Shown here: one piece after another, positions 39,791-61,368 of the stretch
Layout of the letters: every line of letters starts with the position of its first letter
Numbering within the stretch: position 1 is the stretch's first letter
Origin: an uncultured Gammaproteobacteria bacterium
GTDB taxonomy: Bacteria > Pseudomonadota > Gammaproteobacteria > Steroidobacterales > GCA-2729495
Length of the DNA stretch: 64,000 bases
Reading direction: 5' to 3'
Assembly: GCA_963790015.1 (NCBI GenBank)
Contig: CAWBMW010000017.1
Coordinates: forward strand, 14,252-78,251
The notes under the pieces: model-generated
What the model saw: the letters and a program-made list of their open reading frames with translations, nothing else
Databases searched by the model: none
What the model was told of the DNA's origin: nothing
Translations under genes and position numbers: made by a program

Positions 39791-39875
39791 TGTCGAGGGT
39801 CGGTGACGTGGTGGCAATGGCGGACTCACTGTTTACCCTTCGGCACTGAACCCGCGCTGAAGGGCCGGCCAGGCC

Positions 39876-41363
39876 CTACCACTGCTGCCGCCACTCCAGG
39901 AACAGCCGCCAGTCCTCGTCCGTGGCGCCGGTGGACGGCGTGTCCCGCGACTCGAAGCCGAGGCCCGCGCGCAAGCGTGCCGACCGGCAGGCTGCGGCTG
40001 TGGACGAGCGAGGCGCCGACGTACTCCTGCTTGACCGGCGTCACGGTGTTGGCCGGGTCCGGCTCGCCCTCCCGGTTCAGGTCCCCGGCGCTGAGAGTCA
40101 GGGCCCAGCTGTGGTCGTCTGCATCGTTGAGCAGGACACCGAGGGACCAGATCTCCGCGTCGTTGTCGGCGGTGTGGCCGATGGCCCGGCCGCGGTACCG
40201 CATGCCGGTGGAGTAGATCGGGTGGTTGTAGGCGCAGTTGGGCAGCCCGGACCCGGTGATGTTGCCGCCGCAGAGCGTGTCGGCCACCTCGAGGTAGACC
40301 CGCAGGCTGCCGAGGTCCCCCGCCTGCCCCCAGGCCTCGAGGCCAATCTGGGTGAGGAACAGCGAGGGCAGGAAGTCGTCCTCGTCCTCGCCGATGCGCT
40401 GGGTGTAGACGGCCACGGGCACACCCAGGCCGCGCCGCGCTCAGGCGCATGTCGTAGCCGCCCAGCTGGTTGCCCGGCTCGTCCTCCGGGTCCACGTTGT
40501 CGCCGGCATTGTCGCGGCCGAGCAGGAGGTCGGTGAAGGTGTCGAAGTCGCAGGGGCGGCCGCTGCCGCACCACATGGCGGTGCGCGAGAGCCCGAACTC
40601 CAGGAAGCTGGCCGGGCGCACGGTCGTGCGCAGGCCGAAGTACCGCGCGTTGGGGATGTCGCGGCCGTCCTCCAGGAAGCCCCAGAGAGCCACCAGGTCC
40701 CAGTGGCCGATCCAGCGCAGCCATTTCGACTCGAAGGGTGCGGTGGAGTTGCGGTCGATCGTGAAGGCGGGAATCGGCCGGGCATTGTTCGACAGGATCA
40801 TGCTGCTCTGCCAGCCGGGGCCCCACCAGCGATCGGTCATGGCCGCGGCGACCATCCAGTTGCCGAGGGCGATGCCGGCATAGCTGCCATCCGCGCGCCA
40901 CTCGCGGTCATCCTCGGGATCGGCAGCGAACTGGCCCTGCAACCGGAGTGCCGCGCGTGCGCCGGTCCACTCGATGCCGAGCTCGACCTCGGCGGCCTCC
41001 CGCGGCGTCGCTTCGAAATCGCGCAGCGTGCGGCCTTCGGTGCCGCCGCTCAGCCGGGCGCTGGGGCGCCAGTCGCCCACCGCGCGCTCCGACCGGGCCA
41101 GGCGCACCAGGCGGGCCAGGGCGCCGGCCTCGGCGGGCGACAGGTCGACCGGCCGCGCGTCGCCGAACCGCCAGGATGTCGCCCCAGGACAGGGGCCACT
41201 GGGTGACGGGCCCCTTGATGATGCCGGCATCGGCCAGCAACTGGATGTCGTGGCGGAGTCCCGTGTTTCCCGGATCGACCCACGGACCCGCGTCGGCACG
41301 CGGGGCGGCCATGACCAGGATCAGGATCAGGAGGAGCGCCGGCGCCAGTGCAGGAATCCGCAT
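39876..41363 (-). CDS. wzi: capsule assembly protein Wzi (outer-membrane lectin/barrel); multiple frame breaks
   Basis: Signal MRIPALAPALLLILILVMAAPRADA. The pieces LRHDIQLLADAGIIKGPVTQWPLSWGDI, NNARPIPAFTIDRNSTAPFESKWLRWIGHWDL and RYFGLRTTVRPASFLEFGLSRTAMWCG are present. It ends ...LEWRQQW. Confidence 0.75.
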
Positions 41364-43856: not shown

Positions 43857-45941
43857 TGCGCCGCGCCGTCCTGCTGCTCGCGCCGGGCGCTGCTCGGCGC
43901 ACCGTCCGTGCCGGAGGCCGCCCCGCGCAACCTGCCGGACGAGATCATCGTCACCGCCACGCGCTATCCCACGCCCGCCCTCGAGTTCGCCGGCAACACC
44001 GCCCGCGTCGACGCCGACCGCATCGACCTGCTCAACGCCACGCACATCCACGAGGTCGGCACGCAGGTCCCCGGCGTGTGGCTCTCCCGCGGCAGCGGCC
44101 AGGAGCACCTCACCGCGATCCGCTCGCCGGTGCTCACCGGCCCCGGCTCCTGCGGCAGCTTCCTGATCCTGGAGGACGGCATCGCCGATCCGCCCCACGG
44201 GCTTCTGCAACGTCAACGAACTGTTCGAGCTGCCCTCCGAGCAGGCCACGGCGATCGAGGTGATCCGCGGTCCGGGCACGGCGCTGTACGGCTCCAACGC
44301 CGTCCACGGCACGCTCAACGTGCTGCTGCCGGAGCCGGGCGGGCGCGGGATCGCGGTGAGCGGCGAGTCGGGGCCGAATCGCTTCGTCCGCGGCAAGATC
44401 CTCGTGAGCACACCCGGCGGCAACGCCGGCACCACCGGCGACGACTCCGGCTTCATCGGCGGCCTGCTGTTCGATCACGACGGCGGCTTCCGCGACGAGT
44501 CCGACTACCGGCAGGCCAAGGGCTTCCTCAAGTACGCGACGAGCCTGGCTGCCGGCCACCTGGAACTCGGCTTCAGCGGCAACGTGCTGGACCAGGAGAC
44601 GGCCGGCTTCATCCTCGGCGAGGACAGCCTACCGGGACGAGGCCATCCGCCTCACCAACCCCAACCCGGAGTCCTACCGGGACGCCAACGCCCAGCGCCT
44701 CAGCGCCCGCTGGCAGCCGGCGGCGAACACGGCCGACAGCGGCTGGGACGTCATCGGCTTCCTCCGCCGCTCCGACATGGATTTCCTCCAGCACTTCCTG
44801 CTCGGCCAGCCCACCGAGAAGAACGGCCAGACCAGCGGCGGCGTGACGCTGCTCCGCTACTTCGCCACCGGCAACGGCCCGCGTCACCGCCGGCTTCGAC
44901 GTGGAGATCGCCAGCGGCTACCTGGAGGAGTTCCAGTCGAACCCGGAGATCGGCAACCCGCCCCGCCCGGCGGGCCTGCACTACGACTACGACGCCTGGC
45001 AGTGGCTCGCCTCGCCCTACGCCCAGGCCGAGTACCCGCTCGACGAGCGCCTGACGCTCACCGGCGGCCTGCGGCTGCGAATGGCTGCGCTACGACTACG
45101 ACAACAACATGCTCGCCGGCAACACCCGGGACGACGGCACGCCCTGCACGCCCGACTGCCTCTTCAACCGGCCCGCCGACCGCAGCGACAGCTTCACCAA
45201 CGTCGCACCCAACATCGGCATCAACTACCGGCCCGGCGGAGCACACGGCCGTCTACGCGACGCTGACCCGCGGCTTCCGCGCGCCGCAGGCAGCCGAGCT
45301 CTACCGCCTGCAGGCGGGGCAGGACGCGGCGGACCTGGACGCGGAGTCCATCGACAGCCTGGAGGTCGGCTGGCGCTGGCAGTCGCCCCACCTGCAGGTG
45401 GAGTCGGCCGCCTTCGCCATGCGCAAGGAGGACTACGTCCTGCAGGACTCCAACCGCTTCAACGTGAGCAACGGCGAGAGCGAGCACGTGGGTGTGGAGA
45501 CTCGGCGTGGACCTGCAGCAGCGACCTGGGGCTGTACGCCTCGCTGGCCGCCACCTGGGCTAAGCAGACCTACGCCTTCAGCCAGGTGGTCACCGGCGGC
45601 GAGACCATCACCGACGGCAACGACATCGACACCGCGCCCCGCACCCTCGGCAGCCTGCGCCTGGGCTGGACCGGCGATTTCCTGCTGGCCGAGGCGGAGT
45701 GGGTGCACCAGGGCGAGTACTACCTCGACCGCCCAGGAACTCCAGGACTACCCCGGCCACGACCTGCTGAACCTGCGCGCCTCCTGGGCCGTGACGCCGA
45801 ACTGGACCACGACAGCTACGCATGAACAACGTGACGGACGAGCGCTACGCCGACCGCGCCGACTTCGCCTTCGGCGATTACCGCTACTTCCCGGGCCGCG
45901 ACCGCGAGCTCTTCTTCGAGATCGCCTGGCAGTCCCCGTAG
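43856..45941 (+). CDS. TonB-dependent outer-membrane receptor; heavily frame-broken (at least 8 breaks)
   Basis: The plug region is DEIIVTATRYP...IDLLNATHIHEVGTQVPGVWLSRGSGQEHLTAIRSP and IEVIRGPGTALYGSNAVHGTLNV. Barrel segments are present, and the C-terminus is ...RYFPGRDRELFFEIAWQSP. The TAG stop lies in a REP. Confidence 0.8.
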
Positions 45942-46098
45942 GAGCGCGTTCACGCGCGACCTGCCGCGGCCCGTGGCCCGCGGCATCGCGGCCGACAATC
46001 TCTTTGGCTACCGTGAGTACACGGTGAGCGCCAAAGAGATTCTCGTCCACGCTGCCGCTCTGCCGGAGCCGTCCGGTCGCGCGTGAACGCGCTCCTAC
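45938..46098. repeat. GTAG-type REP pair (arms GTAGGAGCGCGTTCACGCGCGAC / inverse) enclosing a 115-bp core with its own inverted repeat
   Basis: Arms at 45938-45960 and 46076-46098, with an inner palindrome CAATCTCTTTGGC...GCCAAAGAGATT. It supplies the TAG stops of both convergent genes. Confidence 0.75.
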
Positions 46099-48245
46099 GG
46101 GGACGACCAGTTCGTCCAGTCCTGGCGGTTCGCGGCCACGTGGAACAGCGCCGCGATGACGCGGCGGTCGTACTGGGTGCCGGCGCCGCGGAGGAGTTCC
46201 TCCAGCGCGGCCTCGATGGACACGCCCTGCCGGTAGGCGCGCACGCTCACCAGCGCCACGAAGGCGTTGGCGACGGAGAGGATCCGGCCGGAGAGCGTCA
46301 TCTCCTGGTCCGCCGAGGCCCCGCGGGTAGCCGCTGCCGTCGAGCAGTTCCTGCTTCTGGGCGATCACGTCGAGCACGGGCCCCTCGAAGTCGAGGCCCT
46401 TCAGCAGCTCGAGGCTGTAAGTCCACGTGCCGGCGGAGCAGCTCCCGGTCGGCGGGTGTCAGCGGCTCCGTCTTCGTGAGCAGGTCGCCGGGCAGCATGA
46501 TCTTGCCGATGTTGGCAAGCGTGGCGGCGAGCCCGAGGGTCTCCCGCTCCTCCTCGGGCAGCCCGAGCTCCCGGGCCACCGCCTGGGCCACCTCCGCCAT
46601 GCGGCTGGCGTGGTGGGCGGAGTACGGGTCGTGCAGGGCCACCGCGTCCGAGAGCTTCCCCACGAGTTCACGCAGCAGGTCCGCGTGCTCCTGCTCGGCC
46701 ACCTTCAGCTCCGTGACGTCGCTCATCACCAGCAGCACGAGCTGGCGCCGCTCGCCGATGCGCTCCACGGGAATGAGGCTCACCTGGAAGCTCTTCAGCG
46801 CGCCGCCGATGGTGAGCGGCAGCACCCGGTGCAGCGGCAGGCGCTGGCGGCGCACGTCGTCGCCGAGGTCGCCGAGGAGGACCGCCGTCGCGTGACCGAA
46901 GATGCCGGAGAGCTGCCCGCCGATCATCGAGGCGATGCTGCTCCTCGCGGCGCTGGCCGTGGCCTGGTTGGTGAAGATCACGTGCTGGTCCCGGTCGACG
47001 AGGACGGTGAGCACGTCGAGGTTGTCGGTGATCGTGTGGAGCAGGTCGGTCTGACGCTGGAGCTTCGCGGCCTTCTCGCGCAGCTCGTCGGCCTGGTGGC
47101 GCGCCCGCACGCTGCTGCCGTGGCGCCAGGCGGCCACCGCCAGCGCAGCGATGGCGACCAGGAGCAGGGAGAGCGTGGCCAGCAGGAATGCGCGCCGCTC
47201 GTTGGCGCCGGCCAGCGCCTCCCCGGCGTTCACCTGCTGCGCGAGGACCCACCCCTGGCCTTCCCTGCGCTGCCCGTCGGTCGCCTGCCCGCGGATCCGC
47301 CGGCTCACCTGCAGCACGGGCGTGCCCCGGTAGTTGTCGAGGGCGGCGAACCGGTCCGGCGCCAGCACGGCCGAGACCTCGGCGAGTTCCGCATCGGCCG
47401 CCGGCCGCTCGAGGGGCACGCTGCGCCGGAGGGCATTGGCGCCCTCCCGGGTGGGCGACAGGAAGAGCACGCTGTCTTCCCGGCGGGCCAGCAGCAGCGT
47501 TTCGCTGTCCTCGGCAAAGGCCGGGCCGCGGCCGAGCAGCGGGAACAGTTCCTGGTCCGCGCTGCGCACGCCGAGGATCACGCCGGCGGGCCCGCTGCCC
47601 GGCGCACCGCCCGGCTGCAGCGCGCCGGACACCGCGCTGACCGGCACGGCGATCACCAGCATGGCCCGGTCGTCGGGTCCGAGCACCAGGTCCACCACCG
47701 TCCGGGCCGGCGTGGCCAGGGCGCGCCGCGCCACGTCGCTGTAGTGGCCAGCACCCGGGCGACGCTGCTGCCGAGGCCGGGCGTGACCACCACGGCATTG
47801 AGTTCCGCATCGAACAGGGCCAGGCCCGACGTCGCCGCGCGCGGCACGTTGGCCGGCACGCGGCCGCTCGCATCCGGCAGGTAGCCGCCCCGCTCCGCCG
47901 CCGCCAGGATCAGGTTGCGCAGGTAGGCCTGCTGGGCAGGCTCGGCCGCCGCCGCGTCGGCCTGGCGCGCCTTCACCACCTGCCAGAGGTAGAGCTGCAG
48001 CGACGCGTTGCGCGCGAGCTCCTCCAGCTCCCGGCGATCCGCCGCCAGCAGCCGCGCGACGGCATCCGCCTTGGCGTCGGCCACGAGGCCCAGCCGTGAC
48101 TCCCACTGCAGCAGGTCCCGCTGCCGTTCGCCTTCTATATAGACGTTGATGAGCAGCGCGCCGAGGCCGATCAGCCCGAGCAGCGCCAGCCACCGCGATC
48201 GCGACGGGGGAGAGACAGCGGGCGCCTGGGGACGGACGCGCTCAT
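46095..48245 (-). CDS. membrane signalling protein: TM / ~330-aa periplasmic domain / TM / PAS-like / degenerate HD-GYP domain (AN...KQE...GYP); multiple frame breaks
   Basis: TM1 WLALLGLIGLGALLINVYI and TM2 AFLLATLSLLLVAIAALAVAAW. The HD-GYP-type region is HDPYSAHHASRMAEVAQAVA...LAATLANIGKIMLPGDLL...IAQKQELLDGSGYPRGL...ILSVANAFVAL. The ATGA overlaps the BTLCP stop. Confidence 0.8.
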
Positions 48246-48943
48246 GTGGGCGGCAGGTGGATCCACCAGCGGGACTCGTTGAGCGAGAAGACCGGCACGT
48301 AGTGCACGACGTCCCGGTCCGACAGGACCGCCTGCACCTGGTTGTCCAGGATCAGGGTCTCCCGCCCGCGGGCCACCGCCAGGACGGCGTGGGGCACGCG
48401 CAGGTTGGTGTCCTGCACGACGACCAGGCGCAGCTCGTCCGCCGGATAGCCGAGCCAGAGCAGCGAGAACAGCTTGGTGATCACGTAGTCCTCGCAGTCG
48501 CCGCCGCTGCCGAGGAACTCGCGGGGGATCGCCCAGTAGTCCTCGATGCCGTAGTTGTCGATGTCGAGCACGTACTCCCGGGTGTTGGCGAAGCGGTTCA
48601 CGGCCCTGAGCTGGTCGGCCACCGGCAGGTTCCGCGCCTCGTCGAGAAAGCGGCGCCACTCGGCCAGGTGGCAGCGGTTGAACACCCGGGCCGTGCAGTC
48701 GCCCCCGCCGGGGCCGTCCCTGAGATCGTCTTTCAGGTGGCGTTCAAGGACCCGCAGCCACTGTGGGAAATCGGCAATCTGCTCCTGGGGCAGTTGCCGG
48801 TAGCCGAAGAGCTCCGCCGGAAAGGCCGCCGCGCCCGCAGACGCCAGACATAAGCACAGACTGGCCAGGATCGGCGCCGGGGCACGACCGTTCAGCGACG
48901 GGGTCGGTGGTGTGTTGATGCGGGGTGTAGTAATTTTGCGCAA
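48242..48943 (-). CDS. bacterial transglutaminase-like cysteine proteinase (BTLCP, LapG family, Peptidase_C93)
   Basis: Intact. Signal-like ILASLCLCLASAGAAAF. The catalytic Cys context is GGDCEDYVITKLFSLLWLG, with downstream VPHAVLAV and LILDNQ (His/Asp). Confidence 0.85.
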   Translation of the reverse strand: MRKITTPRINTPPTPSLNGRAPAPILASLCLCLASAGAAAFPAELFGYRQLPQEQIADFPQWLRVLERHLKDDLRDGPGGGDCTARVFNRCHLAEWRRFLDEARNLPVADQLRAVNRFANTREYVLDIDNYGIEDYWAIPREFLGSGGDCEDYVITKLFSLLWLGYPADELRLVVVQDTNLRVPHAVLAVARGRETLILDNQVQAVLSDRDVVHYVPVFSLNESRWWIHLPPT

Positions 48944-48970
48944 GGCCTCGAAACTACAACAAAAAGGCTT

Positions 48971-50287
48971 ATGGAAAGCAAGCTTATGTCCGTCCCCCGG
49001 CGCGCCACCTCGACCGCGCGCGTCGTTGCCTGTTTTGCCCTGTGCCTCGCCGGGTCAGCCCTCGGTCCCGCCCACGCCCAGGCGACCGCCGACGGCGTCC
49101 AGCAGGAATTCGACGCGGCCCTGGCGGCCATCGAACAGCAGCGCCTGCGCACGGCCCGGCAGCGTCTCACCAGCCTGCTCGCCGCCAATCCCTCCCTGAG
49201 CCGGGCGCGGCTCGAGCTGGCCCGGGTGCACTACCTCTCCCGGGACTACGCCGACGCGCGCCGCGAGGCGCAGCAGGTGCTGGACGACCCCAACACGCCG
49301 CCCGCCGTGCGCGCCACGGTGCTGGCCTTCCTCGCGCAGATCGACGCGGACGAGCGCCGCTTCGCCCCCCGGCATCTCTGGTCGCCCTCCGTCTACGCGG
49401 GCGTGATGTACGACTCCAACGTCAACATCGGCCCCGGCCGCGACGTGATCGACATCGGCGGGATCGACTTCACCGTCGCACCCGCCTCCCAGGAAACCAG
49501 CGACTGGGCCGGCGTGCTCGACGCCGGCATCGCCCACACGTACAACCCGGACGGGCGCTTCGACTGGGGCGAGACCCAGGGCGACTTCCTCTGGCAGAGC
49601 GAGCTGAACGGCTACTACCGGGGCTACTTCGACGAGACCGACTTCAACCTGGGCGTGCTCACCGCGCGCACCGGCCCCGCCTGGGTCGTGCCCGGCCGCT
49701 GGCGAGCCTACGTGGCCGTGCAGCTCGACCAGATCTTCCTCGGCGGCGACGACCTCGCGCTCTTCACCAGCCTCAACCCCGGCATCGCCTGGCAGATCGG
49801 CGACGACTGGGAAGTGGGCCTCGACGCCTTCATCACCGACCGCAACTACAGCGGCAGCGACGAGGACGGGCGGGACGGCGACTACCAGTCCGCCAGCCTC
49901 ACCGTCGGCCGCTACTTCCGGGAACGCAGCCTGCTGGTGCAGGCTGGGGCCAGCTACTACAACTTCGACGCGGACGCGGAGTTCCTGAGCTACGACGGAC
50001 CGGAGGTCTTCGCCGGCTTCATCAGCCAGGCCTGGACGAACGGCTCCGTGTTCGCCCGCGTCGGCTACCGCTGGTACGACTTCGAGGGCCTGGAGCCGCT
50101 CTTCAACGAGCCGCGGGACGACGACGAGCTGCGCGCCACGGCCGGCTTCCAGCACGACTACCGCGAGGGCTGGCTCGACCGCTGGTCCCTGGTCGGCTCC
50201 TGGACGTGGACCGACAACCAGTCGGACGTGGCGATCTACGAGTACGACCGGCACCAGGTGAGCCTGGGCCTGTCGCGAACGTTCTAG
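48971..50287 (+). CDS. DUF560 outer-membrane protein (Slam / type 11 secretion system barrel) with N-terminal TPR region
   Basis: Intact 438 aa. It has a signal peptide and a TPR-like N-terminus (ARLELARVHYLSRDYADARREAQQVL), then a beta-barrel body (SVYAGVMYDSNVNIGP...) ending ...VSLGLSRTF. Confidence 0.8.
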   Translation: MESKLMSVPRRATSTARVVACFALCLAGSALGPAHAQATADGVQQEFDAALAAIEQQRLRTARQRLTSLLAANPSLSRARLELARVHYLSRDYADARREAQQVLDDPNTPPAVRATVLAFLAQIDADERRFAPRHLWSPSVYAGVMYDSNVNIGPGRDVIDIGGIDFTVAPASQETSDWAGVLDAGIAHTYNPDGRFDWGETQGDFLWQSELNGYYRGYFDETDFNLGVLTARTGPAWVVPGRWRAYVAVQLDQIFLGGDDLALFTSLNPGIAWQIGDDWEVGLDAFITDRNYSGSDEDGRDGDYQSASLTVGRYFRERSLLVQAGASYYNFDADAEFLSYDGPEVFAGFISQAWTNGSVFARVGYRWYDFEGLEPLFNEPRDDDELRATAGFQHDYREGWLDRWSLVGSWTWTDNQSDVAIYEYDRHQVSLGLSRTF

Positions 50288-50453
50288 GCCCCGGGATTAG
50301 GTTGAATGTGAACCCGGTCGCAGATTCCCGCGGCGCGTCGTGAAGTGCCGTAGGACATGGTGTAGAAGACTTAGCTAACAACAGAAGATTTGCCGGCGAA
50401 GCGCGCGCGAGACGCGGTGCCGGGACAACAGACGAAGAGACGGGGAACACTCC

Positions 50454-51609
50454 ATGCAGAAGTTACTGGCCATCGCCGCACTTGCGTTGCTGGCGCTGCC
50501 CCTCCAGGCCAACGCCGCCACGCCGCGCTCGGACGCCGACTGCGCCCAGCTGCTCGAGCGCTGGGCCGGCGACCCCAAGGCCGCGCCGAAGAGCGAGATC
50601 AATTCGTGCAAGGACCAGCTGGCCGCCATCGCGCCGGCCGCCGGTCCGCCGCCCGAACCCGTTGCCGTAGTCGATCCCTGCTCCGGTCCGGACGCGGGCA
50701 GCTCCGTGCTCTGCTGGGGACCCTGGTCCGCGCTGGCGCCCGCCGCGGCCGCGCCGCTGGCGGCCCTCGATTTCCCGGACACGTACCTGCAGTGCGATTC
50801 CGGCGCGGCGCTGCTGGCCGAGCAGTGCGTGCCCCAGCTCGAGCCCGTCCTGCCCGTGGCCGGCTGCCAGCCCGGCACACCCTGCGGCTTCGCCACCATC
50901 GTGGACGGCAGCACCAGCAACGGCGATGCCGAAGACACGGCGTTCGGCCGCATCGACCTGGCGCCCGACGGCACCGCCTTCTCGATCGACCCGGACACCG
51001 GCGAGCCGATCGACTCTGTACCGATGACCACCGTGGTCACGCCGCGGCCCGACGACGGCTACGGCAACCTGCGTGCGAACGGGCGCCAGGGGGACGTGGG
51101 CTCCCGGCTGATCGCCCGGGTCGAGCAGGACGAGGACGGCGAGATCGTGCTGGCCGCCGACGTCTGGACCCACGGCACCCGGGAGAACGCCCGGTCGGGC
51201 TACTTCGCCTGGGGCACGGCCACGAGCCAGTCCGGCCTGGATGCGCTCAACGGCGGCAACGTCAGCCTGAACTTCACCGGACCCATGTCGGTGAACAACT
51301 CGACCACCGCCAACATGACCGTGAACTTCGGCGGCAACCCGAACTGGACCGGCACCTGGACCAACCCCGCCTGGAGCTTTGGCGCGGGCGGCACGGTGAG
51401 CGGCCCCAACCTGATCTCCCTGCCCGGCCAGTTCACCAGCAACGTGACGGGCTCGGGCAATTTCGTCCAGGGCGCGCTGGTTGGCGAAGGCGGGGTCGGC
51501 CGCCCGCGGCCTCACGCACATCATCGACGTCACGCTCGAAGGCCCGGGACGCATCAAGGACGTGGGCCTGCTGCGCGACGTGGTGGCCGGCCCGGTCATC
51601 GCGCCGTAA
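50454..51609 (+). CDS. secreted protein with C-terminal TbpB-like 8-stranded barrel (candidate Slam/T11SS cargo); one frame break ~51490
   Basis: SPase-I-type signal MQKLLAIAALALLALPLQANA with no lipobox. The C-terminal pattern is GYFAWGTATSQSGLDALNGGNVSLNFTGPM...MTVNFGGNPNWTGTW...SFGAGGTVSGPNL...VQGALVGEGG / GLTHIIDVTLEGPGRIKDVGLL. Confidence 0.6.
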
Positions 51610-51628: not shown

Positions 51629-52201
51629 ATGCATCTCCGCAACCTCGCCGCTGCCCTGCTGCTGATCGCCGCGGGCAGCGCCGCCCAGGCGGCCAGCCTC
51701 GCGCTGGTGCCGTCCGCAAACCCCGTGGTGGAGGACAGTACCTTCACGGTGAACCTGGTGCTGAACGCCGCCGACGCGCCGGGCATCCACCCGGGCCTCC
51801 ACAGCGGCGCCATCAGCGTGGACTTCAACAGGACGCTGCTCACCTACAACGGCTTTACGCTGGCGAACGGCCTGATCTTCTTCTCGCCCCTCGCGGTCAC
51901 CACGAACGGCACTGCACAGACCGTCACGCTCGGCTTCCAGAACGCCCCGGATGCCGGCACGGTCGGCACCTTCTCCTTCACGGCGACCGGCCCGGCCGGC
52001 AGCCTCGCGACGCTCGGCCTCGTCGATGCCGACGACCTGTTCGGCAGCTTCGTGAACAAGGCCGTCAGCGATCAACCCTACGTCCCGACCTTCACCGGCA
52101 CCCAGGTGAGCATCTCCCCCGTCCCGCTGCCCGCCGGCATCTGGCTGCTGGGCACCGCCGTCGGCGCCCTCGCCGCGCGCCGCCGCCTGAAGCCGCGGTA
52201 A
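51629..52201 (+). CDS. VPLPA-CTERM (PEP-CTERM-variant) sorting-signal protein
   Basis: Signal peptide and a beta-rich domain. The C-terminus is SPVPLPAGIWLLGTAVGALAARRRLKPR (motif, TM, basic tail). Confidence 0.8.
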   Translation: MHLRNLAAALLLIAAGSAAQAASLALVPSANPVVEDSTFTVNLVLNAADAPGIHPGLHSGAISVDFNRTLLTYNGFTLANGLIFFSPLAVTTNGTAQTVTLGFQNAPDAGTVGTFSFTATGPAGSLATLGLVDADDLFGSFVNKAVSDQPYVPTFTGTQVSISPVPLPAGIWLLGTAVGALAARRRLKPR

Positions 52202-52208: not shown

Positions 52209-53420
52209 GTGACCGCACGGGCTGGCACCGCGCTGGCCCTGCTCCTCGCGAGCGTCGCTGCCTTCGGGGCACCCACGCAGGATCCCGACTGGCACATTCC
52301 CCTCGCTGCCGTAGGAGCGCCGACCGGCGCGACCGGCCAGCTACCGCAGCCCGACGCCGTTCGTCTCCGCGCAGCCCTCACCCACTACCAGCACCTCGCC
52401 GCCGCCGGCGGCTGGCCCGAACTGCCGGCCGGCACGACCCTGCAGCCCGGCCAGCGCGACGCGCGCGTCGTGGCGCTCCGGAACCGGCTCCGCCTCAGCG
52501 GCGACTTCACCGGTTTGCCGGGCACCGCCGACGCCTGGTTCTTCGACGGCAGCCTTCAGCGCGCGCTGCAGGGTTTCCAGGCGCGGCACGGGCTGCCTCC
52601 CACCGGCGTGCCGGACGAGCGCACGCTCACGGCGCTGAACGTCCCCGCCGCCGACCGGGTGCAGCAGCTGCAGGCCACGCTCACCCGCTGGGGCTGGCTG
52701 CCCCGGGACTTCGGTCCCCGCTACCTGTGGGTCAACGTGCCGGGCGGGTCGCTGGAGCTGGTCGAGGACGGCACGGTCACGCTCAGCATGCGCGTCATCG
52801 CCGGCCACCCGGACCGGCCCACGCCCAGCTTCCAGGACACGGTCACCGGGATCGTGGTGAACCCGCCCTGGTCCGTGCCCCGCACCATCGCCGTGGAGGA
52901 CCTGCTGCCCACCCAGCAGGAGGACCCGACCTTCCTCGCGCGCCTCGGCATCCGCGTGCTCGACGGCAATGGTGAGGAGCGGGACCCGGCGCGCATCGAC
53001 TGGCAGCGGGTCAGCGCCGACAACTTCCCCTACCGCCTCCGCCAGGACCCGGGCCCGCTGAACAGCCTCGGCAAGCTCAAGTTCGTGCTCTCGAATCCCT
53101 GGGACATCTTCCTGCACGACACCCCGTCCCGGCGCCTCTTCGACCTGAACAGCCGGACGCTGAGCTCCGGCTGCATCCGGCTGGAGCAGCCGGAGCAGCT
53201 GGCGGAACGGCTGGTAGGAGCGGCTTCAGCCGCGACCCTGGATCGGGTCGCGGCTGAAGCCGCTCCTACGGCCGCTCCTACGGCCGCTCCAACGACACGG
53301 ACCCTCACCATTCCTCGGCCAATCCCGATATACGTGGTTTACCTGACGGCCTGGGTCACGCCCGAGGGCGTGGTCAACTTCCGCCCTGACGTTTACGGCC
53401 GGGACGCGAGGCTGCGATAA
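52209..53420 (+). CDS. YcbB/LdtD-like L,D-transpeptidase (PG-binding plus YkuD domains) carrying two in-frame REP-derived insertions
   Basis: PG_binding region is [28 protein letters not shown]. The YkuD catalytic region is IFLHDTP...LSSGCIRLE. The ORF is intact as given. Confidence 0.85.
52311..52332. repeat. GTAG-type REP, single arm inside the Ldt ORF
   Basis: GTAGGAGCGCCGACCGGCGCGA, translated as VGAPTGAT. Confidence 0.75.
53214..53294. repeat. GTAG-type REP 56-bp hairpin plus triplicated 12-bp terminal unit, all in frame inside the Ldt ORF
   Basis: The hairpin is GTAGGAGCGGCTTCAGCCGCGAC-cctggatcgg-GTCGCGGCTGAAGCCGCTCCTAC. The tandem unit follows as GCCGCTCCTACG x2 plus GCCGCTCCAACG (53259-53294). 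Confidence 0.9.
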
Positions 53421-53469: not shown

Positions 53470-54770
<1,301 letters not shown>

Positions 54771-54918: not shown

Positions 54919-55497
54919 TTGTCCGGTTGCCCGGACCCGGGCAGGCCCTATCCTGAGTCGGTGACCACTCACCCGCGCATTGACACCGCGCCGATAGCCA
55001 GCTGCATCATCGTCGTGCGCGGCGTACGGGTGCTGCTGGATCGAGATCTGGCAGACCTCTACCGCGTCCGGGCCATCGCGCTCCGGCAGCAGGTGAAGCG
55101 GAACCGGGCACGGTTCCCGGCGGACTTCATGTTCCAGCTGACGCCCAGAGAGGTCGCCGGCCTACTATCACAATCTGTGATACCTCGCCTGACAAGGCGA
55201 GGCGGATCAATGCCTTACGTGTTCACCGAACAGGGCGTGGCGATGCTCTCCAGCGTCCTTTCCAGCGACCGGGCGGTGGCGGTGAACATCGCGATCATGC
55301 GGGCGTTCGTGCAGGTGCGATCGATGCTGGCGACCAACCAGGAGCTGTCGGAGCGCCTCCTGGAGCTTGAGCGGCAGGTCGCCTCCAATGATGCATCGAT
55401 TACCACCCTGTTCGACGCCATCCGGCAACTGATGGCCATACCCCAGGCGGGCAGCCGGCCCATTGGCTTCACCGCGGATTTGGATGGCGCCGGTTGA
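54919..55497 (+). CDS. ORF6N (KilA-N-related) DNA-binding domain protein
   Basis: VRGVRVLLDRDLADLYRVRAIALRQQVKRNRARFPADFMFQLT...PYVFTEQGVAMLSSVLSSDRAVAVNIAIMRAFV. Start codon uncertain. Confidence 0.8.
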   Translation: MSGCPDPGRPYPESVTTHPRIDTAPIASCIIVVRGVRVLLDRDLADLYRVRAIALRQQVKRNRARFPADFMFQLTPREVAGLLSQSVIPRLTRRGGSMPYVFTEQGVAMLSSVLSSDRAVAVNIAIMRAFVQVRSMLATNQELSERLLELERQVASNDASITTLFDAIRQLMAIPQAGSRPIGFTADLDGAG

Positions 55498-55507
55498 CGG
55501 ACTGACG

Positions 55508-56474
55508 CTAACCCCGGTCCAGCGGACTCTTCACCCCCTTCGCCCCCTTCCCCATGACGTGCGTGTAGATCATCGTGGTCTTCACGTCGCTGTGGCCGAG
55601 CAGCTCCTGCACCGTGCGGATGTCGTAGCCGTCCTCGAGCAGGTGGGTGGCGAAGCAGTGGCGTAGCGTGTGCGGGCTGGCCGGCTGCGTGATGCGCGCA
55701 GCCCGGATCGCGGTGCGCATGGCACGCTGGATGGTCTTCTCGTGCAGGTGATGACGGATCGGGCGCCCCGAGTACGGATCCCGGCACAGGGACGTGGACG
55801 GGAAGACGTATTGCCAGCCCCACTGGGTGCCGACGCCCGGGTACTTCGCCGCGAGCGCCATGGGCACCGACACGCCCGGGCTCGCCCCGGCGCCGCTGCT
55901 CGTCGAACCAGCCCCGCAGGCGCGCGAGGTGCGCCCGCAGCGGCAGCGCGACCGCCGCCGGCAGGACCGTCACCCGGTCCTTGCCGCCCTTCCCGTCCCG
56001 GACGATCAGCTCGCCCCGCTCCAGCGCCAGGTCCTTGACCCGCAGTCGCAGCGCTTCCGTCACCCGCAGCCCGCTGCCGTAGAGCAGTTGCGCCACCAGC
56101 AGCGCCGTACCCTGGAGGCCCGCCAGGACTGACCGAACCTCGTCCCGGGTCAGCACCACCGGGAGCCGCTGCGGCCGGCTCGCCCGGGTGACGTTCTCCA
56201 GCCAGGGCAGGTCGACCCCCAGCACATTACGGTAAAGGAACAGCAGGGCCTGTAGCGCCTGGTTCTGGGTGCTCGCGCTGACCTTGCGGCGGACCGCCAA
56301 ATGGGTCAAGAATCGCTCCACGCCCTCCGCACCCAGGTCCCGGGGATGCTGCCGCTCATGGAACTGCACGTACCGCCGAATCCACTGCAGGTAGGCCTGC
56401 TCGGTGCGATACGCCAGATGCCGGGTGCGCATCTTCTCCCTCGCCACCTGCAGCAGCCCCGGCCCCTCGCCCAT
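55508..56474 (-). CDS. intI: integron integrase IntI (tyrosine recombinase); one frame break ~55875
   Basis: Collinear by eye with IntI1. Matching segments are [63 protein letters not shown], the IntI-specific insert [21 protein letters not shown], and [39 protein letters not shown]. Confidence 0.9.
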
Positions 56475-56610
56475 GCGCCCTATCCCTCCGGCCGCTTAGG
56501 CGACATCGCCGTGGCCCCCAGAGAATGGAATCAGGACCTTGCCCCAACCACCACCAGACTATCCGACGCTTTCGACCAGTTTTATCCCCCACTTCGTCCC
56601 CCTACATATA

Positions 56611-56617
56611 GTTAGGC
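56611..56617 (+). other. attI core site GTTAGGC (candidate cassette insertion point)
   Basis: First GTTRRRY downstream of the divergent intI start. The first cassette ORF starts 4 nt later. Confidence 0.5.
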
Positions 56618-56621
56618 GTCT

Positions 56622-56924
56622 ATGTCCAGTTGTACGCTCGATCACGTTCCCATTCGTGGTTCTGGCGGCGATTGCGGGCGGGTCTTGAGCCTGTATGCGG
56701 CACGCCTTAGCGTCGTTGAATTTTCCCTTTACGTAGGGGCGATTCAGACTGGTTTCTCCACTGCTGGAGTCTTTGTCGTGTGCTATCCCGCCCTATTGAT
56801 CGCGCGGCGAATTGCTGGCGCAACTCCTCGCAAACGGACTTATGGACTCCCCCCGCAAGTCGGGCGAGTGATCGATAGTGATGGCCGCGGGGATTTCGCC
56901 TGCAGTCGTATATCCGGCATCTAA
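56622..56924 (+). CDS. first-cassette ORF, hypothetical (weak)
   Basis: 100-aa ORF starting right after attI. Composition is not strongly protein-like, and the region downstream is scrambled by an IS remnant. Confidence 0.2.
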   Translation: MSSCTLDHVPIRGSGGDCGRVLSLYAARLSVVEFSLYVGAIQTGFSTAGVFVVCYPALLIARRIAGATPRKRTYGLPPQVGRVIDSDGRGDFACSRISGI

Positions 56925-57142
56925 GGTGGGCTCTGAATGGCCCGTGCCGACATGGAATCTGCGTCACCGAGGCGCCAGTCGATACAAGCGGCAGGCGAAG
57001 CTGCCGGAAGAGTTATCGGCGTCTCTCGGTGTGGGGTGAACCCGGTTGGCCATGATGGTCGATCAATCTCGTCGCAAGCGTGTGGTGGGTCGTCAGTCTT
57101 AAGCTCGCGGCATCGCGAAGGCCCGCGCTCGAGCTTCACGGC

Positions 57143-57905
57143 TCAGTCGCGCTGCGTCCGTAACGGCTCCTGGTCTCTGAGCGTGGCGTAGCAGATGCGC
57201 GCCAGCTTGTTGGCCAGCGCGCAGGCGGCCTTGTTGTGGTTCGAGCGTCTCTGCACATCCAGGGCCCAGCGGCGCAGGCGCCATCGACGCTTTGCCGCGC
57301 GGTCGTGCGCGACGCTTGGCCGCTCGCAGCACGCTCCTGGCGCCGTGCGTCAGCAGCATGCGCAGGTAGCGGTCCCCGTGCTTGCGAGATCCGCCGAGGT
57401 GGCGGCTACTGCCCGAGGAGTGCTCCTTCGGCGTCAAGCCCGAACCAGCTGGCGAAGTGCCGTGCATCCTTGAAGTGGCCGACGATCACCCGAGTGGCCG
57501 CCACCATCGCCGTGGCGGTGCAGCAGGCCGATGCCGGGCATCGACAGCAGCGTGGTGCAGGCCGGCGACTCACTTGGCCAGCGCTGCGCAACTCACGCTC
57601 CAGCTGGGAGACGGGCTTCGAGCAAGCGGATCTCCTCGACGAGCAACGTCAGCGGTGCCTCGAAACAGCATCCGGGATCGCCGTGCTGGGATCGGCGAGC
57701 ACCCGGCCGATCGGCTCGACGCCCGATGCGGCTACCCATCGGGAATGCGCGATGCCAAACTCCGGCAGAAGCCGCGCAGGGCGTTGATCCGCGAGTACGG
57801 GTTGCCATCCACAGCGCCACGGGTACGGTGCAGCGCCTGCAAGCGCCTGTTGCTCCACGCGACTTGACGCGCACCGGTACAGATCTCGGCGCAGCGCGCA
57901 CCCAT
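57143..57905 (-). pseudogene. IS110-family (IS1111-like) transposase remnant, 5'-truncated and multiply frame-broken
   Basis: The pieces VEQQALQALHRTR, RINALRG / LLPEFGI, GHFKDARHFASWFGL / TPKEHSSGSSRHLGG.SKHGDRYLRMLLTHGARSVLRAA and NHNKAACALANKLARICYATLRDQEP lie across three frames. The N-terminal DEDD region is absent. Confidence 0.7.
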
Positions 57906-58474
57906 GCACCGGCGCCCTCTGCTCATCGGGATAGTAGCCATGTCACTTGTGGGCGTAGGCATGTTGTCGTGGAGGCTAGGGTCGTCCCTGTCAATGTCCG
58001 CAACGACTCGGGAGGCCAGCGGCTCTGAGATCCCGGCGGAGCGCATTGCCGCCATCGCCTCCGGCGAGGTTGCAGAGTTCGTGTCATTCGGCACGCCACT
58101 GTTAGTCCTTCGTCCATCACCTGCTCAATTGCAAGCTGTGGCTGACCTCAACAATCACGTCTGGAATGGTCAGTGGTCTGGGTACGACAAAGAACATGGG
58201 CTATTCATCTACTGGGGTGTAAGTACGCGCTTTCGGTGTAAATTGCAGCATATCCCCCAGGGAGAGTCCCCTCTTGGAGTTCGGCACGGGTTACCGCTGG
58301 CTCGGCGGCTATTTCGACCCCTGCCACGACTCTAGTTACGACTACGCGGGTCGCACAATCAAGTCCCTTACGTACACCCGAAATGGTTTCAATGCGGAGG
58401 TACCAAACTTGCGAGCACCTGAACATCGCTTTCGCCGAGATGGCACGCTTGTCGTCTATCCCGAAGCCAGCTAA
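57904..58474 (+). CDS. cassette protein: bc1-type Rieske-fold homologue lacking most [2Fe-2S] ligands; one frame break ~58270
   Basis: RR plus TM N-terminus (MHRRPLLIGIVAMSLVGVGML). It has GVSTRFRC in place of CTHLGC and GGYFDPCHDSSYDYAGR in place of GGWFCPCHGSHYD. The stop TAA lies in the attC inverse core. Confidence 0.6.
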
Positions 58475-58522
58475 CCAACCGCTCCACCGGTCGCCAGGCG
58501 CCGGTGAGCTCAATCGTTAGGC
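58469..58522 (+). repeat. attC recombination site (54 bp)
   Basis: AGCTAAC...imperfect palindrome...GTTAGGC. Confidence 0.75.
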
Positions 58523-58525
58523 AAC

Positions 58526-58984
58526 ATGAAAGTACGTTGGGCAGCCGTCGCTTGTCTTGTGGTTGGCCATCACGCCACGGCCGCACAGCGAAATTTGTCT
58601 TGCCCGGCGGCCACAGTCCTTCCTGATCTAGACGGTGCGTACCACGCGTGCTCCAACGGCTATGTTGACGGAAGCTGCCAGCGATTCATTGAGGCGTTCA
58701 AAAAGCTCACGGGCCGGTATGACTGTCAGCGCTCGTTTGATACCGACCCTGTGCCAGCCGTTTGGCTCGCACCACGCGGAGCGGTTGAAGATTTCGTACG
58801 GCTAACGTGGCGCCTCGCCTCAGATTCGCAATTCAAGGACAAGCTGTATAAGGACGTACGCACCGAAGCGCGTGCCTTCTTTGGAAGCGCGGATTTCCAA
58901 GGCGTTCTGGACGGAGCCCTAGCGGAGGATTACCTAGGGAAATCACAGCGCGTTGCCAGGGAACTGAAAGAGTCAGGGCCGTGA
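58526..58984 (+). CDS. cassette ORF, secreted Cys-containing hypothetical protein
   Basis: 152 aa, signal-like MKVRWAAVACLVVGHHATAA. Starts 4 nt after the attC core. Confidence 0.6.
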   Translation: MKVRWAAVACLVVGHHATAAQRNLSCPAATVLPDLDGAYHACSNGYVDGSCQRFIEAFKKLTGRYDCQRSFDTDPVPAVWLAPRGAVEDFVRLTWRLASDSQFKDKLYKDVRTEARAFFGSADFQGVLDGALAEDYLGKSQRVARELKESGP

Positions 58985-58988
58985 CGCT

Positions 58989-59072
58989 GCCTAACCAACG
59001 GTTCCAGCCGACGCCGGCGCTTGGCGCCGATTCCCTCACCGCACTCGGCGCGGCTGAACCGAGACGTTATGT
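58989..59072 (+). repeat. attC recombination site (84 bp)
   Basis: GCCTAAC...GTTATGT. Confidence 0.65.
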
Positions 59073-59139
59073 GACAAAGCCGAGCGAAAGCGTGGATTCT
59101 GGCGTTGACCCCCTCCATGGACCGATCTAAGGTGCTGAC

Positions 59140-59370
59140 ATGAAATCGGACCAATCGACCCTTGAGGATCAGATTTCCCGGTTACCTGACCGGGAACGAG
59201 CCCGGTTGGCACTTCGGCTTCTGGAGAGCCTGGAGCCGGGGTCAGACGAGAATGTCGATGAACTCTGGCTGGACGAAGCTGAACGCCGTCTTGGGGACTA
59301 CGACAAGGGCTTGACCGAGGCCCGTGATGCCGACGAAGCAATTGCCGAGATCGAGCGCCACCTTAGATGA
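59140..59370 (+). CDS. type II antitoxin (addiction-module component, TIGR02574-like)
   Basis: RLPDRERARLALRLLESLEPG...DELWLDEAERRLGDYDKG. Overlaps the toxin gene by 4 nt. Confidence 0.75.
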   Translation: MKSDQSTLEDQISRLPDRERARLALRLLESLEPGSDENVDELWLDEAERRLGDYDKGLTEARDADEAIAEIERHLR

Positions 59371-59660
59371 CGCAAATTCGACTTCTCCCGGAGGCCGAGG
59401 AGGAGTTGCAGGCTGCTGCCAGGTTCTACGAAGCGCTGCGGCTGGGCTTGGGGCTGGCTCTGCTTCAGGAGGTACGTCGCGCTAGAGAGCGTATCGCCGA
59501 GCGGCCGAGGGCATCACGCATCGAGCGTGGTGATATTCGGGTCCGAAGCATTCTCCGATTCCCCTATCGGCTTTATTATCGAGTCCGCGCCGACGAGATT
59601 GTCATCATAGCAGTCGGCCATCGGCGTCGACGACCGGGGTTCTGGCGTAGCCGAACTTAG
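59367..59660 (+). CDS. RelE/ParE-family type II toxin
   Basis: IRLLPEAEEELQAAARFYE...FPYRLYYRVRADEIVIIAVGHRRRRPGFW. Confidence 0.8.
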   Translation: MTQIRLLPEAEEELQAAARFYEALRLGLGLALLQEVRRARERIAERPRASRIERGDIRVRSILRFPYRLYYRVRADEIVIIAVGHRRRRPGFWRSRT

Positions 59661-59662
59661 TC

Positions 59663-59749
59663 ACATAACAAATCGCTGATGCTGACCGTGACAGATAAAG
59701 CGTCAAAGACGAAACCGCGGCGTGCGGCCGCTCAGCTCCAACGTTAGAG
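59663..59749 (+). repeat. attC recombination site (87 bp)
   Basis: ACATAAC...GTTAGAG. Confidence 0.65.
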
Positions 59750-59755
59750 CGCCGG

Positions 59756-60067
59756 ATGAAGACGTCACTGTCCATAGCGTTACTGATTGCTGCCGGCTTC
59801 GCAGTTAAGGCATCGCTCGATGAGGCAGAACGTTATGTCCACGTTCGAATCGTCGATACGTGCTTTGCCAAATACTCAGCCCCTCTATCCAAGGCACAGG
59901 AACTCGCGTGCTATGAGTCGCCACGTCAGAGTTCGGCCTACCGGGTCCTTGCCGCATTGGCCTTTCAGCCACAACTATGGAAGAACACTGGGGGACGGTG
60001 CGTGGATTCGCAGGATCAACAGCGTGAGTACTTCGATTGCGGGTGGTGGAACCGTGTCGCGCTCTAA
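59756..60067 (+). CDS. cassette ORF, small secreted Cys-rich hypothetical protein
   Basis: 103 aa, signal MKTSLSIALLIAAGFAVKA, 4 Cys. Confidence 0.55.
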   Translation: MKTSLSIALLIAAGFAVKASLDEAERYVHVRIVDTCFAKYSAPLSKAQELACYESPRQSSAYRVLAALAFQPQLWKNTGGRCVDSQDQQREYFDCGWWNRVAL

Positions 60068-60163
60068 TCAATCGCTCCACCGAGCGCCTGCCGCACCTGT
60101 CACGCGGCTTGCAAGCGAAACCCGCGCGCCAGCCGCTGGCGCCGCTGAGCTCAATCGTTAGGC
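60062..60163 (+). repeat. attC recombination site (102 bp), paralogue of 61268-61368
   Basis: CTCTAATCAATCGCTCCACCG...GCTTGCAAGCG...GAGCTCAATCGTTAGGC. Confidence 0.75.
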
Positions 60164-60168
60164 CTGCC

Positions 60169-60594
60169 GTGTCGTATCAGTTTGCGGTTTCCTTCTACGC
60201 GCTAACGTTGGGTTACATCGTGTTCACGGGACTAAGCGGAGGACTTCAACCTCCTCCAGAAACTGCCGCCATTATTCTGCTTTTATCGGGTCCGTTGATT
60301 CTCGTGATTCTGCGCTGGCATCGTGTCCGCCGTCGCGGAGCTCTGCTGGTACCCCATGAATACCTTAATACCCGACGGATTGGCCGATACGCCGGAGTCG
60401 CACTACTCTGGGCAGGTCATCTTCCAGTTTTGGCAGCCGTGATCTTCCTGTGGGCCGGCCTAATGGGCTCGGGGGTCGGCACCTTTGTCCCCGCCATTGG
60501 GATGGCCTGTATCACGTCATTATTGCTCTATGCGCTAGCTGTGCTGACAATCGAGATCAGCATCCGGCGATGGCAGACGTCGGGGAAGGCCTAA
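60169..60594 (+). CDS. cassette ORF, 4-TM membrane protein of unknown function
   Basis: The GTG at 60169 lies just after the attC core. Four hydrophobic helices. The stop is in the next inverse core. Confidence 0.55.
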   Translation: MSYQFAVSFYALTLGYIVFTGLSGGLQPPPETAAIILLLSGPLILVILRWHRVRRRGALLVPHEYLNTRRIGRYAGVALLWAGHLPVLAAVIFLWAGLMGSGVGTFVPAIGMACITSLLLYALAVLTIEISIRRWQTSGKA

Positions 60595-60683
60595 CTTGGC
60601 GCTCCACACGGACGCGCCCCAGGCGCGTACCTCGTGGGAGGCATAACGATGAAGGGGCGCGCCGGTCAGCTCAGGCGTTATCG
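60589..60683 (+). repeat. attC recombination site (95 bp)
   Basis: GCCTAAC...GTTATCG. Confidence 0.65.
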
Positions 60684-60691
60684 GGCAGCAT

Positions 60692-61249
60692 GTGATGGCC
60701 TATTTTGAAGACCTGACGAAGTACCAGTACTCGGGAAGGCCACAATCTGGCGTCCTCAATGTAGGCTGGCTAGCCGAGGATCGGCCGTTTAACGTCGGCA
60801 CGACATCTGAGGCATTTCACACCGCACTTAGGGATATGTGCGACAACAAGTCGATGAACCTTTGCTTTGGCCACCATGTCTGCGAGTTCTGCCCGGGTGC
60901 ATCCTGGAGTGATCCATATTTTCACAGCAATGGAAACGGTGAGATCCGCGTCCGCGGAGTTGACGGCACCTGGTATGTCGCACCTCGCCTAGTTCTTCAC
61001 TACGTAGTCGCGCATGACTATTGCCCGCCCAAGGACTTCATTGAGGCAGTATTGAACCCGGCTGAGATTGGGCAAGATCCGGAGCCGGTGCGATTGAGTG
61101 AAGACGAGCAAACAGAACGCATTCGCGAATGGGATAAACGTATGCGGGCCGAACGCGGCCCTCCACTTACTGAAGCAGAAATGGATCGAATCGTGAAGTG
61201 GGGGATTCGGAACACAGGCTCACAAAAGCCGTGGTGGCGATTCTGGTAA
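60692..61249 (+). CDS. cassette ORF, conserved-looking hypothetical protein with Cys/His cluster
   Basis: 185 aa. Contains NLCFGHHVCEFCPG and VLHYVVAHDYCPP. Confidence 0.6.
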   Translation: MMAYFEDLTKYQYSGRPQSGVLNVGWLAEDRPFNVGTTSEAFHTALRDMCDNKSMNLCFGHHVCEFCPGASWSDPYFHSNGNGEIRVRGVDGTWYVAPRLVLHYVVAHDYCPPKDFIEAVLNPAEIGQDPEPVRLSEDEQTERIREWDKRMRAERGPPLTEAEMDRIVKWGIRNTGSQKPWWRFW

Positions 61250-61267
61250 TCGAACGCGCACATACCC

Positions 61268-61368
61268 GATAATCAATCGCTCCACCGGTCGCCGAATGCG
61301 TCTTTCACGCGGCTTGCAAGCGCAACCCGCGCGCCAGTCACTGGCGCCGGTCAGCTCAAGCGTTAGAC
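61268..61368 (+). repeat. attC recombination site (101 bp)
   Basis: GATAATCAATCGCTCCACCG...GCTTGCAAGCG...CAGCTCAAGCGTTAGAC. Confidence 0.75.

Follow-up and report, generated by a model that had tools for sequence, protein, structure and literature searches.

In a 64,000 nt stretch of the genome of an uncultured Gammaproteobacteria bacterium (contig CAWBMW010000017.1; this whole stretch is called the window below) we observed four adjacent genes that bring together parts of two unlike systems. On the minus strand there are genes for a PAS-HD-GYP protein, a DvhD-like receptor or phosphodiesterase of cyclic di-GMP (c-di-GMP; 46104–48245), and for a periplasmic LapG/DvhG-type cysteine protease of the bacterial transglutaminase-like class (BTLCP; 48242–48943). 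On the plus strand they are followed by genes for an outer-membrane protein resembling Slam of the type 11 secretion system (T11SS; 48971–50287) and for a secreted cargo protein with a TbpB-like predicted fold (50454–51609; 384 aa once a +1 frameshift at ∼51495–51505 is repaired). With moderate confidence we take the receptor, the protease, the Slam-like barrel and the cargo as one functional unit in which the BTLCP is coupled to the cargo; for the exact logic of tether and release our confidence is lower. Domain identities, gene linkage and the conservation of a motif in the cargo were observed directly in the genomes; the folds were observed as models.

Linkage was followed in 49 species-representative genomes carrying the cargo gene. 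Wherever the contig reached far enough, the gene order was HD-GYP, BTLCP, barrel, cargo, then a gene for a small secreted VPLPA-CTERM (exosortase-sorted) protein (51701–52201, plus strand, in the window; TIGR03370, 29.6 bits) and a gene for a YcbB-like L,D-transpeptidase with a PG_binding_1 domain (52209–53420, plus strand; YkuD 76 bits, PG_binding_1 46 bits). The conservation profile was filtered by strand and colinearity and used in place of unfiltered tblastx, which gave spurious matches all over the GC-rich window. According to this profile, the block from 46.0 to 53.4 kb was colinear in 95–100% of ∼45 species-level genomes; the flanks with a TonB-dependent receptor gene and icd were colinear in 45–50% of related loci, and regions further out in <25%.

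At 25–50% identity, the four-gene core was also found elsewhere: five contigs (L051–L055) have it between pssA and leuA, and it occurs beside an RHS locus (L050) and in locus L049 as well. All these versions consist of the four genes only, with neither the VPLPA-CTERM gene nor the transpeptidase gene. The HD-GYP, BTLCP, barrel and cargo genes were seen together, in all, in three different chromosomal contexts. Adjacency of the BTLCP and the barrel, reported by the initial annotation of this DNA, proved not to be unique to the genome, as it was present in every related locus extending upstream of the barrel and in six out of six distant loci with other flanks.

The two halves of the core are transcribed divergently. 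The stop codon of the BTLCP gene and the start codon of the HD-GYP gene overlap as ATGA (48245–48242). Between the annotated BTLCP and barrel starts there is the very short spacer already noticed in the initial annotation, 27 bp long (48944–48970); its length is 27–28 bp in close relatives and 120–250 bp in distant ones. An AT-rich stretch (∼48915–48990) covers the spacer, in which a promoter/terminator scan found no consensus promoter; the true starts on its two sides may be located further in, e.g. at Met6 of the barrel (48986).

The VPLPA-CTERM protein and the L,D-transpeptidase were considered as parts of the core and rejected. In the window lineage (lineage 1) their genes are always paired beside the core; in L040 they shift together, as a separate pair, and they are absent in L049–L055. 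The idea that the transpeptidase could link a new N-terminus of the cargo to peptidoglycan was left without support.

Some distant modules encode a second, larger protein (∼620 aa) right after the cargo (L053, 7890–9758; L052, 8789–10654). This protein may be a second cargo; in L053 it has a weak match to TbpB_B_D. In the two most distant loci (L056, 558–2966; L057, 323–2731) the barrel–cargo pair is situated just downstream of a sigma-70-family gene, and the cargo keeps GWAIW...PPAAGP near its N-terminus.

The conserved N-terminal motif of the cargo

The initial annotation had speculated on a link between LapG and a PAAG tetrapeptide of the cargo (residues 61–64; 50634–50645, plus strand). 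At this place [TAP]AA[GV] was kept in only 34 of 104 close homologues, and the tetrapeptide was absent from distant relatives; thus, we rejected it as the main protease site. The link fared much better at a di-alanine further on in the protein (residues 95–99), where it became the strongest point of the analysis.

This di-alanine lies 30 residues past PAAG, in the string SVLCWGPWxx[LIV]APAA[A/G]. We observed APAA in all 104 close homologues and WGPWxx[LIV]APAA in 46 of 48 genome loci. In the window the family-defining motif is SSVLCWGPWSALAPAAA (50700–50750, plus strand), which we propose to hold a docking element for the BTLCP together with the scissile Ala-Ala; the window cargo has PAAA at the conserved site, with PAAG 30 residues upstream.

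A search with the cargo family profile against 1.84 billion cluster representatives yielded 117 relatives. In the distant ones the mature protein starts almost directly with [DE]DSV[YRH]xWG[RPK]W-x(5-7)-[P/T]AAG, close behind the signal peptide. The element was present in 106 of the 117 superfamily representatives (PAAG in 95, TAAG in 7, PAAA in 3 and PAAS in 1); at the equivalent place, fixed relative to the invariant WGxW, 102 of the 117 have [P/T]AAG, P-to-T switches included. In an alignment with mean identity of 24% (A3) the motif holds six of the eight invariant columns and is the most conserved part of the cargo. The motif region is disordered in the cargo model.

The scissile consensus of LapG and DvhG is [T/A/P]AAG, cut between the alanines (PMC13090378), and as a sequence the superfamily motif [P/T]AAG fits this consensus. 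In known LapG substrates the site is placed at whichever end is the last to leave the periplasm, N-terminal in LapA and C-terminal in CdrA (PMC4694147). An N-terminal site would fit a cargo recognized via its C-terminal barrel. The pattern DSVxxWGxW-x(5-7)-[P/T]AAG offers a practical search key for more BTLCP substrates.

Protease, receptor, barrel and cargo

The protease has a signal peptide and matched Peptidase_C93 with 69.8 bits and the NCBIfam LapG model with 85 bits, the latter below the equivalog cut-off. Aligned to the LapG structures 4FGO and 4U65, it keeps the GDCED calcium/cysteine motif as well as the H and D residues; hence it is predicted to carry the Cys-His-Asp triad and the adjacent calcium-binding D-x-E.

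As the window copy of the HD-GYP gene has three frameshifts, we describe the protein by an intact 705-aa orthologue (L007): transmembrane segment, ∼330-aa periplasmic domain, transmembrane segment, PAS and HD-GYP (HD_5 131 bits, plus PAS_4). The best PDB sequence match of the HD-GYP protein was Desulfovibrio vulgaris DvhD (9RC0/9RBZ, E-value 6e-35), ahead of catalytic HD-GYP enzymes. DvhD binds c-di-GMP and acts as a switch for the BTLCP DvhG, with a function similar to that of LapD (PMC13090378). The HD dyad is intact in the window lineage (LHDPY; L007, 75–2192, minus strand), replaced by Y-V in the pssA–leuA lineage (L051, 2718–4736, minus strand) and by K-A in DvhD. Such replacements suggest, at the level of sequence, that catalysis was lost repeatedly and the protein left as a receptor only.

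The barrel gene is a single open reading frame of 438 aa encoding a signal peptide, a TPR domain (49088–49363) and a 14-strand barrel (49373–50281). The AlphaFold2 (AF2) model, with predicted local distance difference test (pLDDT) score of 87.5, has five helices (residues 40–131) and 14 long strands, in agreement with the intact TPR plus 14-strand barrel protein described by the initial annotation. The model superposed best on the 14-strand barrels OmpG (TM-score 0.70) and CymA (TM-score 0.54); there was no Slam structure among the PDB fold matches, so that comparison is limited to other 14-strand barrels. The earlier assignment to DUF560/Slam held as well, for a divergent branch: SlipAM/DUF560 (PF04575) matched residues 245–438 with 30.3 bits (cut-off 22). 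Pfam search also gave DUF2860 with 44.9 bits (cut-off 22.9), TPR_16 and TPR_19 (TPR_19 above its cut-off) and TPR_Slam (PF24575) with 19.1 bits, below the cut-off of 35.2. Among 38 homologues of the barrel, at E-value ≤0.01, DUF2860 matched 37, TPR_Slam 34 and SlipAM 31. One homologue bears the NCBI name ‘surface lipoprotein assembly modifier’. Given that the match to DUF2860 is stronger than the match to DUF560, we characterize the protein, by sequence profile and model, as a divergent member of the DUF560/DUF2860 group with Slam architecture and not as a classical Slam.

The cargo has a signal peptide of the signal peptidase I (SPase I) type, MQKLLAIAALALLALPLQANA|AT (...LPLQANA|AT), with no lipobox and no Cys at +1, as was stated earlier. 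A lipobox-like string occurred in three of 232 family members, and the family is predicted to be without lipidation. Some 190 homologues were collected, all from Gammaproteobacteria metagenomes or metagenome-assembled genomes and none with a Pfam domain. Direct sequence searches with the cargo in Pfam, NCBIfam and PDB yielded no meaningful match; its link to TbpB_B_D came solely from the structure model and from the family-profile search.

The fold of the cargo was taken from the AF2 model of a homologue with 85% identity. Two helices (residues 27–39 and 46–57, pLDDT 71–86) form an N-terminal hairpin at residues 27–57 (50529–50627, plus strand; SDADC...CKDQLAA). The hairpin cysteines, C30 and C52, are invariant among close homologues; the hairpin itself is lineage-specific and absent from distant relatives, and it may act as a plug on the periplasmic side. 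Residues 60–128 are disordered and rich in Ala and Pro. The remaining part is all-beta, with pLDDT >90, and consists of eight strands (144–256), one helix and eight more strands (271–374). The first eight strands make a handle-like domain (50865–51224, plus strand) opening with the invariant C-x-PG-x-PCGFAT; the second eight make a C-terminal TbpB-type barrel (51252–51609, plus strand), the presumed T11SS recognition domain, with its last two strands past the frameshift. In the model the C-terminal 240 residues share their layout, handle plus barrel, with TbpB lobes and hemophilin.

In a Foldseek search of the cargo model against PDB the most significant match was TbpB (4o4u; E-value 4e-4, probability 0.99), and the only other high-probability matches were fHbp (0.98), HphA (0.89) and HpuA (0.63). 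All four proteins are established T11SS cargo. The eight-strand barrel of TbpB/hemophilin type that the initial annotation had read from the repeating pattern of the cargo C-terminus is thus borne out by the model. For ten distant relatives of the cargo, TbpB_B_D (PF01298) was the top or the only Pfam match in nine, in two of them above the cut-off, and the matches fell on the region equivalent to the C-terminal barrel of the cargo.

Proposed mechanism and competing explanations

What follows on how the cargo is secreted and cleaved, how c-di-GMP exerts control, which way the switch works and what holds the N-terminus we infer from anatomy and linkage. The cargo would be exported by Sec and lose its signal peptide to SPase I. 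Its C-terminal handle-plus-barrel part would then take the route of type 11 secretion across the outer membrane, via the Slam-like TPR-barrel protein, with the N-terminal segment carrying DSVxxWGxW...[P/T]AA[G/A] (SVLCWGPWSALAPAAA in the window) staying in the periplasm or leaving it last. The co-encoded LapG-type protease would cut this segment between the two alanines, and the co-transcribed PAS-HD-GYP protein would restrain the protease, sensing cytoplasmic c-di-GMP in the manner of DvhD and LapD; by analogy with these two, the protease would be held back at high c-di-GMP. Since the receptor would restrain the very protease that cuts the retained segment, the c-di-GMP level would decide whether the cargo remains cell-associated or is clipped and released.

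The N-terminus could be held by the disulfide-stapled hairpin (in the window lineage), or else the motif could bind to the TPR domain that the barrel protein has in the periplasm. In most relatives only ∼20 residues precede the site, which suggests binding to the TPR domain, or else a role in maturation rather than in release. The most specific form of the proposal, that a non-lipidated T11SS cargo is held at the cell surface by a short periplasmic DSVxxWGxW peptide, perhaps bound by the TPR domain, and is freed at [P/T]AAG by the LapG-type protease under the control of c-di-GMP, is tentative; we see it as a real possibility that falls short of probable. As the motif points to a protein that is tethered or processed, the label ‘soluble cargo’ given by the initial annotation may have to be changed.

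Several observations weigh against a protease-controlled T11SS cargo. Within the window subfamily the conserved site is usually PAAA (57 of 104), not PAAG. The ‘DP’ turn of LapG substrates is not present beside the cargo site, which is preceded by the invariant DSVxxWGxW instead. The ∼20 residues in front of the scissile bond in the wider family are too short for a globular retention module in the style of LapA, and a hairpin module upstream of the site exists only in the window lineage. With its HD dyad kept, the HD-GYP protein of the window lineage may be an enzyme that still hydrolyses c-di-GMP, not a pure receptor. Linkage of the genes has exceptions: in L042 there is no HD-GYP gene beside the others, and a BTLCP gene is missing next to the most distant pair, L056/L057. 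The barrel fits DUF2860 better than DUF560. The TM-scores of the cargo in Foldseek were low (0.2–0.46), because the full-length model, including the disordered part, was searched. Finally, a direct match to PF01298, which the initial annotation proposed to look for, was observed neither in the window cargo nor in its 39 close homologues (E-value ≤10), and no Pfam cargo-domain match was obtained; as PF01298 matches occur in distant relatives but not in the window protein, homology of the cargo to TbpB_B_D is supported only transitively.

One could think of an ordinary T11SS pair with a soluble cargo of the hemophilin type that merely happens to lie beside an unrelated pair of Lap/Dvh type, the real substrate of the latter being a large adhesin encoded elsewhere. 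Known substrates of LapG and DvhG are indeed giant adhesins of the type 1 secretion system (T1SS) or the type 5b secretion system (T5bSS) (PMC13090378); L042 and L056/L057 demonstrate that partners of the module can separate; and a neighbouring TonB-dependent receptor, present at about half of the lineage-1 loci, is what is seen at nutrient-capture T11SS loci. Yet chance neighbourhood would have to account for BTLCP, barrel and cargo being adjacent in three unrelated flanking contexts at 25–50% identity, and for the N-terminal [P/T]AAG motif being the most conserved element of the cargo, while no genes for LapA-like adhesins or T1SS were seen within 10 kb at any inspected locus, and none for TpsB at these loci. 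We consider this explanation improbable. Slightly better placed, though also unlikely in our judgement, is the role of the BTLCP as a maturation protease that removes an N-terminal pro-peptide before export or activity, so that c-di-GMP would gate secretion or activation and not release. The short N-terminal segment (∼20 residues, with no plug domain) in most of the superfamily and the disorder of the motif region in the model would agree with a pro-peptide; on the other hand, all characterized BTLCP/LapG systems free a tethered surface protein (PMC13090378, PMC4694147), and the disulfide-stapled hairpin upstream of the site in the window lineage resembles a retention element.

The barrel could also be thought of as a DUF2860-type porin or assembly factor and no translocon, with the beta-rich neighbour being periplasmic or associated with the outer membrane and the likeness to T11SS being structural only. 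The fact that DUF2860 outscores SlipAM, with TPR_Slam under the cut-off, speaks for a porin, as does the lack of a Slam structure among the PDB matches for direct comparison. Against it, a TPR plus 14-strand barrel gene followed by a gene for a TbpB-fold protein is the defining arrangement of T11SS (PMC8406197), and among the barrel homologues SlipAM and TPR_Slam matched 31/38 and 34/38 members; one homologue bears the NCBI name cited above. We regard this reading of the barrel as very improbable. Coupling of the BTLCP to a T11SS cargo remains the explanation that we favour.

Comparison of such a coupled module with known systems reveals likenesses on each side. As in the Slam/TbpB systems of Neisseria and those of HrpB/hemophilin type (subcluster 1B), a protein with N-terminal TPR and a DUF560-type 14-strand barrel is encoded upstream of the cargo gene; as in soluble T11SS cargo, an SPase I signal peptide is combined with a handle domain and, at the C-terminus, a single eight-strand barrel of TbpB type. 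Unlike in T11SS, the barrel is closer to DUF2860 than to DUF560, the cargo goes unseen by PF01298 and has the conserved N-terminal WGxW...[P/T]AAG, the pair is joined to BTLCP and HD-GYP genes, and the module resides in uncultured environmental Gammaproteobacteria, not in host-associated bacteria.

With the Dvh system of D. vulgaris (PMC13090378) the module shares a BTLCP gene beside a gene for a protein of the inner membrane that combines a periplasmic domain with PAS and HD-GYP, as well as the consensus [T/A/P]AAG at the proposed scissile site. It differs from Dvh in that the candidate substrate is a 38-kDa T11SS cargo, whereas the substrates in Dvh are giant adhesins of T1SS that have a beta-rich retention domain; the window BTLCP has a signal peptide, not a membrane anchor; the HD dyad lost in DvhD is kept; and the periplasmic domain of the window receptor has no sequence match to the dCache domain of DvhD. 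The proposed likeness to LapA/LapG/LapD of Pseudomonas fluorescens and CdrA/CdrB/LapG of P. aeruginosa would consist in a periplasmic calcium-dependent cysteine protease acting on a di-alanine in that end of a surface protein which stays in the periplasm, the protein being threaded through an outer-membrane channel, with an inside-out c-di-GMP receptor gating the protease; CdrA indicates that this logic is not bound to one type of secretion. In contrast to Lap, the receptor is PAS-HD-GYP and not HAMP-GGDEF-EAL as in LapD, the channel is Slam-like and not TolC-like or TpsB, the ‘DP’ turn before the site is lacking, and the retention element is small or absent. From both Lap and Dvh the module differs in its candidate substrate, a 384-aa TbpB-fold protein encoded beside a Slam-like barrel rather than a large T1SS or T5bSS adhesin.

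Almost all that is known of type 11 secretion comes from host-associated bacteria, in which it displays lipoproteins or releases hemophores. We know of no regulator described as acting on a T11SS-secreted protein, and to our knowledge the cases of Lap-type ‘inside-out’ control by c-di-GMP are limited to giant adhesins of T1SS and a single T5b adhesin. All parts of the module are of known kinds; their combination is new. There is no mention of c-di-GMP in the T11SS neighbourhood surveys that we searched, and the one from 2025 names none of LapG, BTLCP and HD-GYP either; among the top-ranked results of a full-text search no literature joining Lap-type control with Slam or T11SS was found. The Dvh paper names only T1SS and T5b substrates (PMC13090378).

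If our proposal is true, the logic of release by protease is portable across secretion systems, there is a testable answer to the question of what could keep a T11SS cargo without lipidation on the cell, and DvhD-type HD-GYP receptors extend from sulfate reducers to environmental Gammaproteobacteria. Tethering, if true, would add a third route of secretion to the two, T1SS and T5bSS, that are under Lap-type control. With it, type 11 secretion would have its first described post-translational regulator, and the TPR domain of Slam a first proposed function.

Reading frames and neighbouring genes

The cargo gene was earlier described as running to 51609. This end is correct as the stop of the +1 frame; the gene is not, however, a single open frame between 50454 and 51609. 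Frame 0 reaches 51620 with a nonsense tail, and from ∼51495, where there is a GGGG run (51492–51495), homologues follow the cargo in frame +1 up to the stop codon at 51607–51609. Other genes of the window are broken in a similar way: icd (53470–54767) has two frameshifts and is spread over three frames, and the three frameshifts of the HD-GYP gene divide it into four frame pieces. Because these two genes are frameshifted too, the frameshift in the cargo gene is most likely a sequencing or assembly error and not decay. We considered a genuine pseudogene and judged it unlikely, given the similarly broken icd and HD-GYP genes and the fact that the out-of-frame tail encodes a conserved peptide. 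The TonB-dependent receptor gene (43900–46030) likewise lies in several frames, and the pattern of frameshifts across conserved genes resembles homopolymer indels of long-read assembly.

Between icd and an integrase gene there is a gene for an ORF6N-domain protein (54919–55497, plus strand; 97 bits), which suggests that mobile DNA borders the conserved block. The integrase, a tyrosine recombinase with Phage_int_SAM_4 and Phage_integrase domains (55215–56474, minus strand), is frameshifted and by eye similar to integron integrases. Beyond it, ∼5 kb (56500–61500) have GC content of 58–63%, compared with ∼70%, and are not conserved in related genomes; this region may be a cassette array or another insertion. 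Elsewhere in the window we observed genes for a 1164-aa multi-TPR protein (16005–19499, minus strand), a Wzi capsule-assembly protein (39833–41299, minus strand) and a gamma-glutamyltranspeptidase (61980–63827, plus strand).

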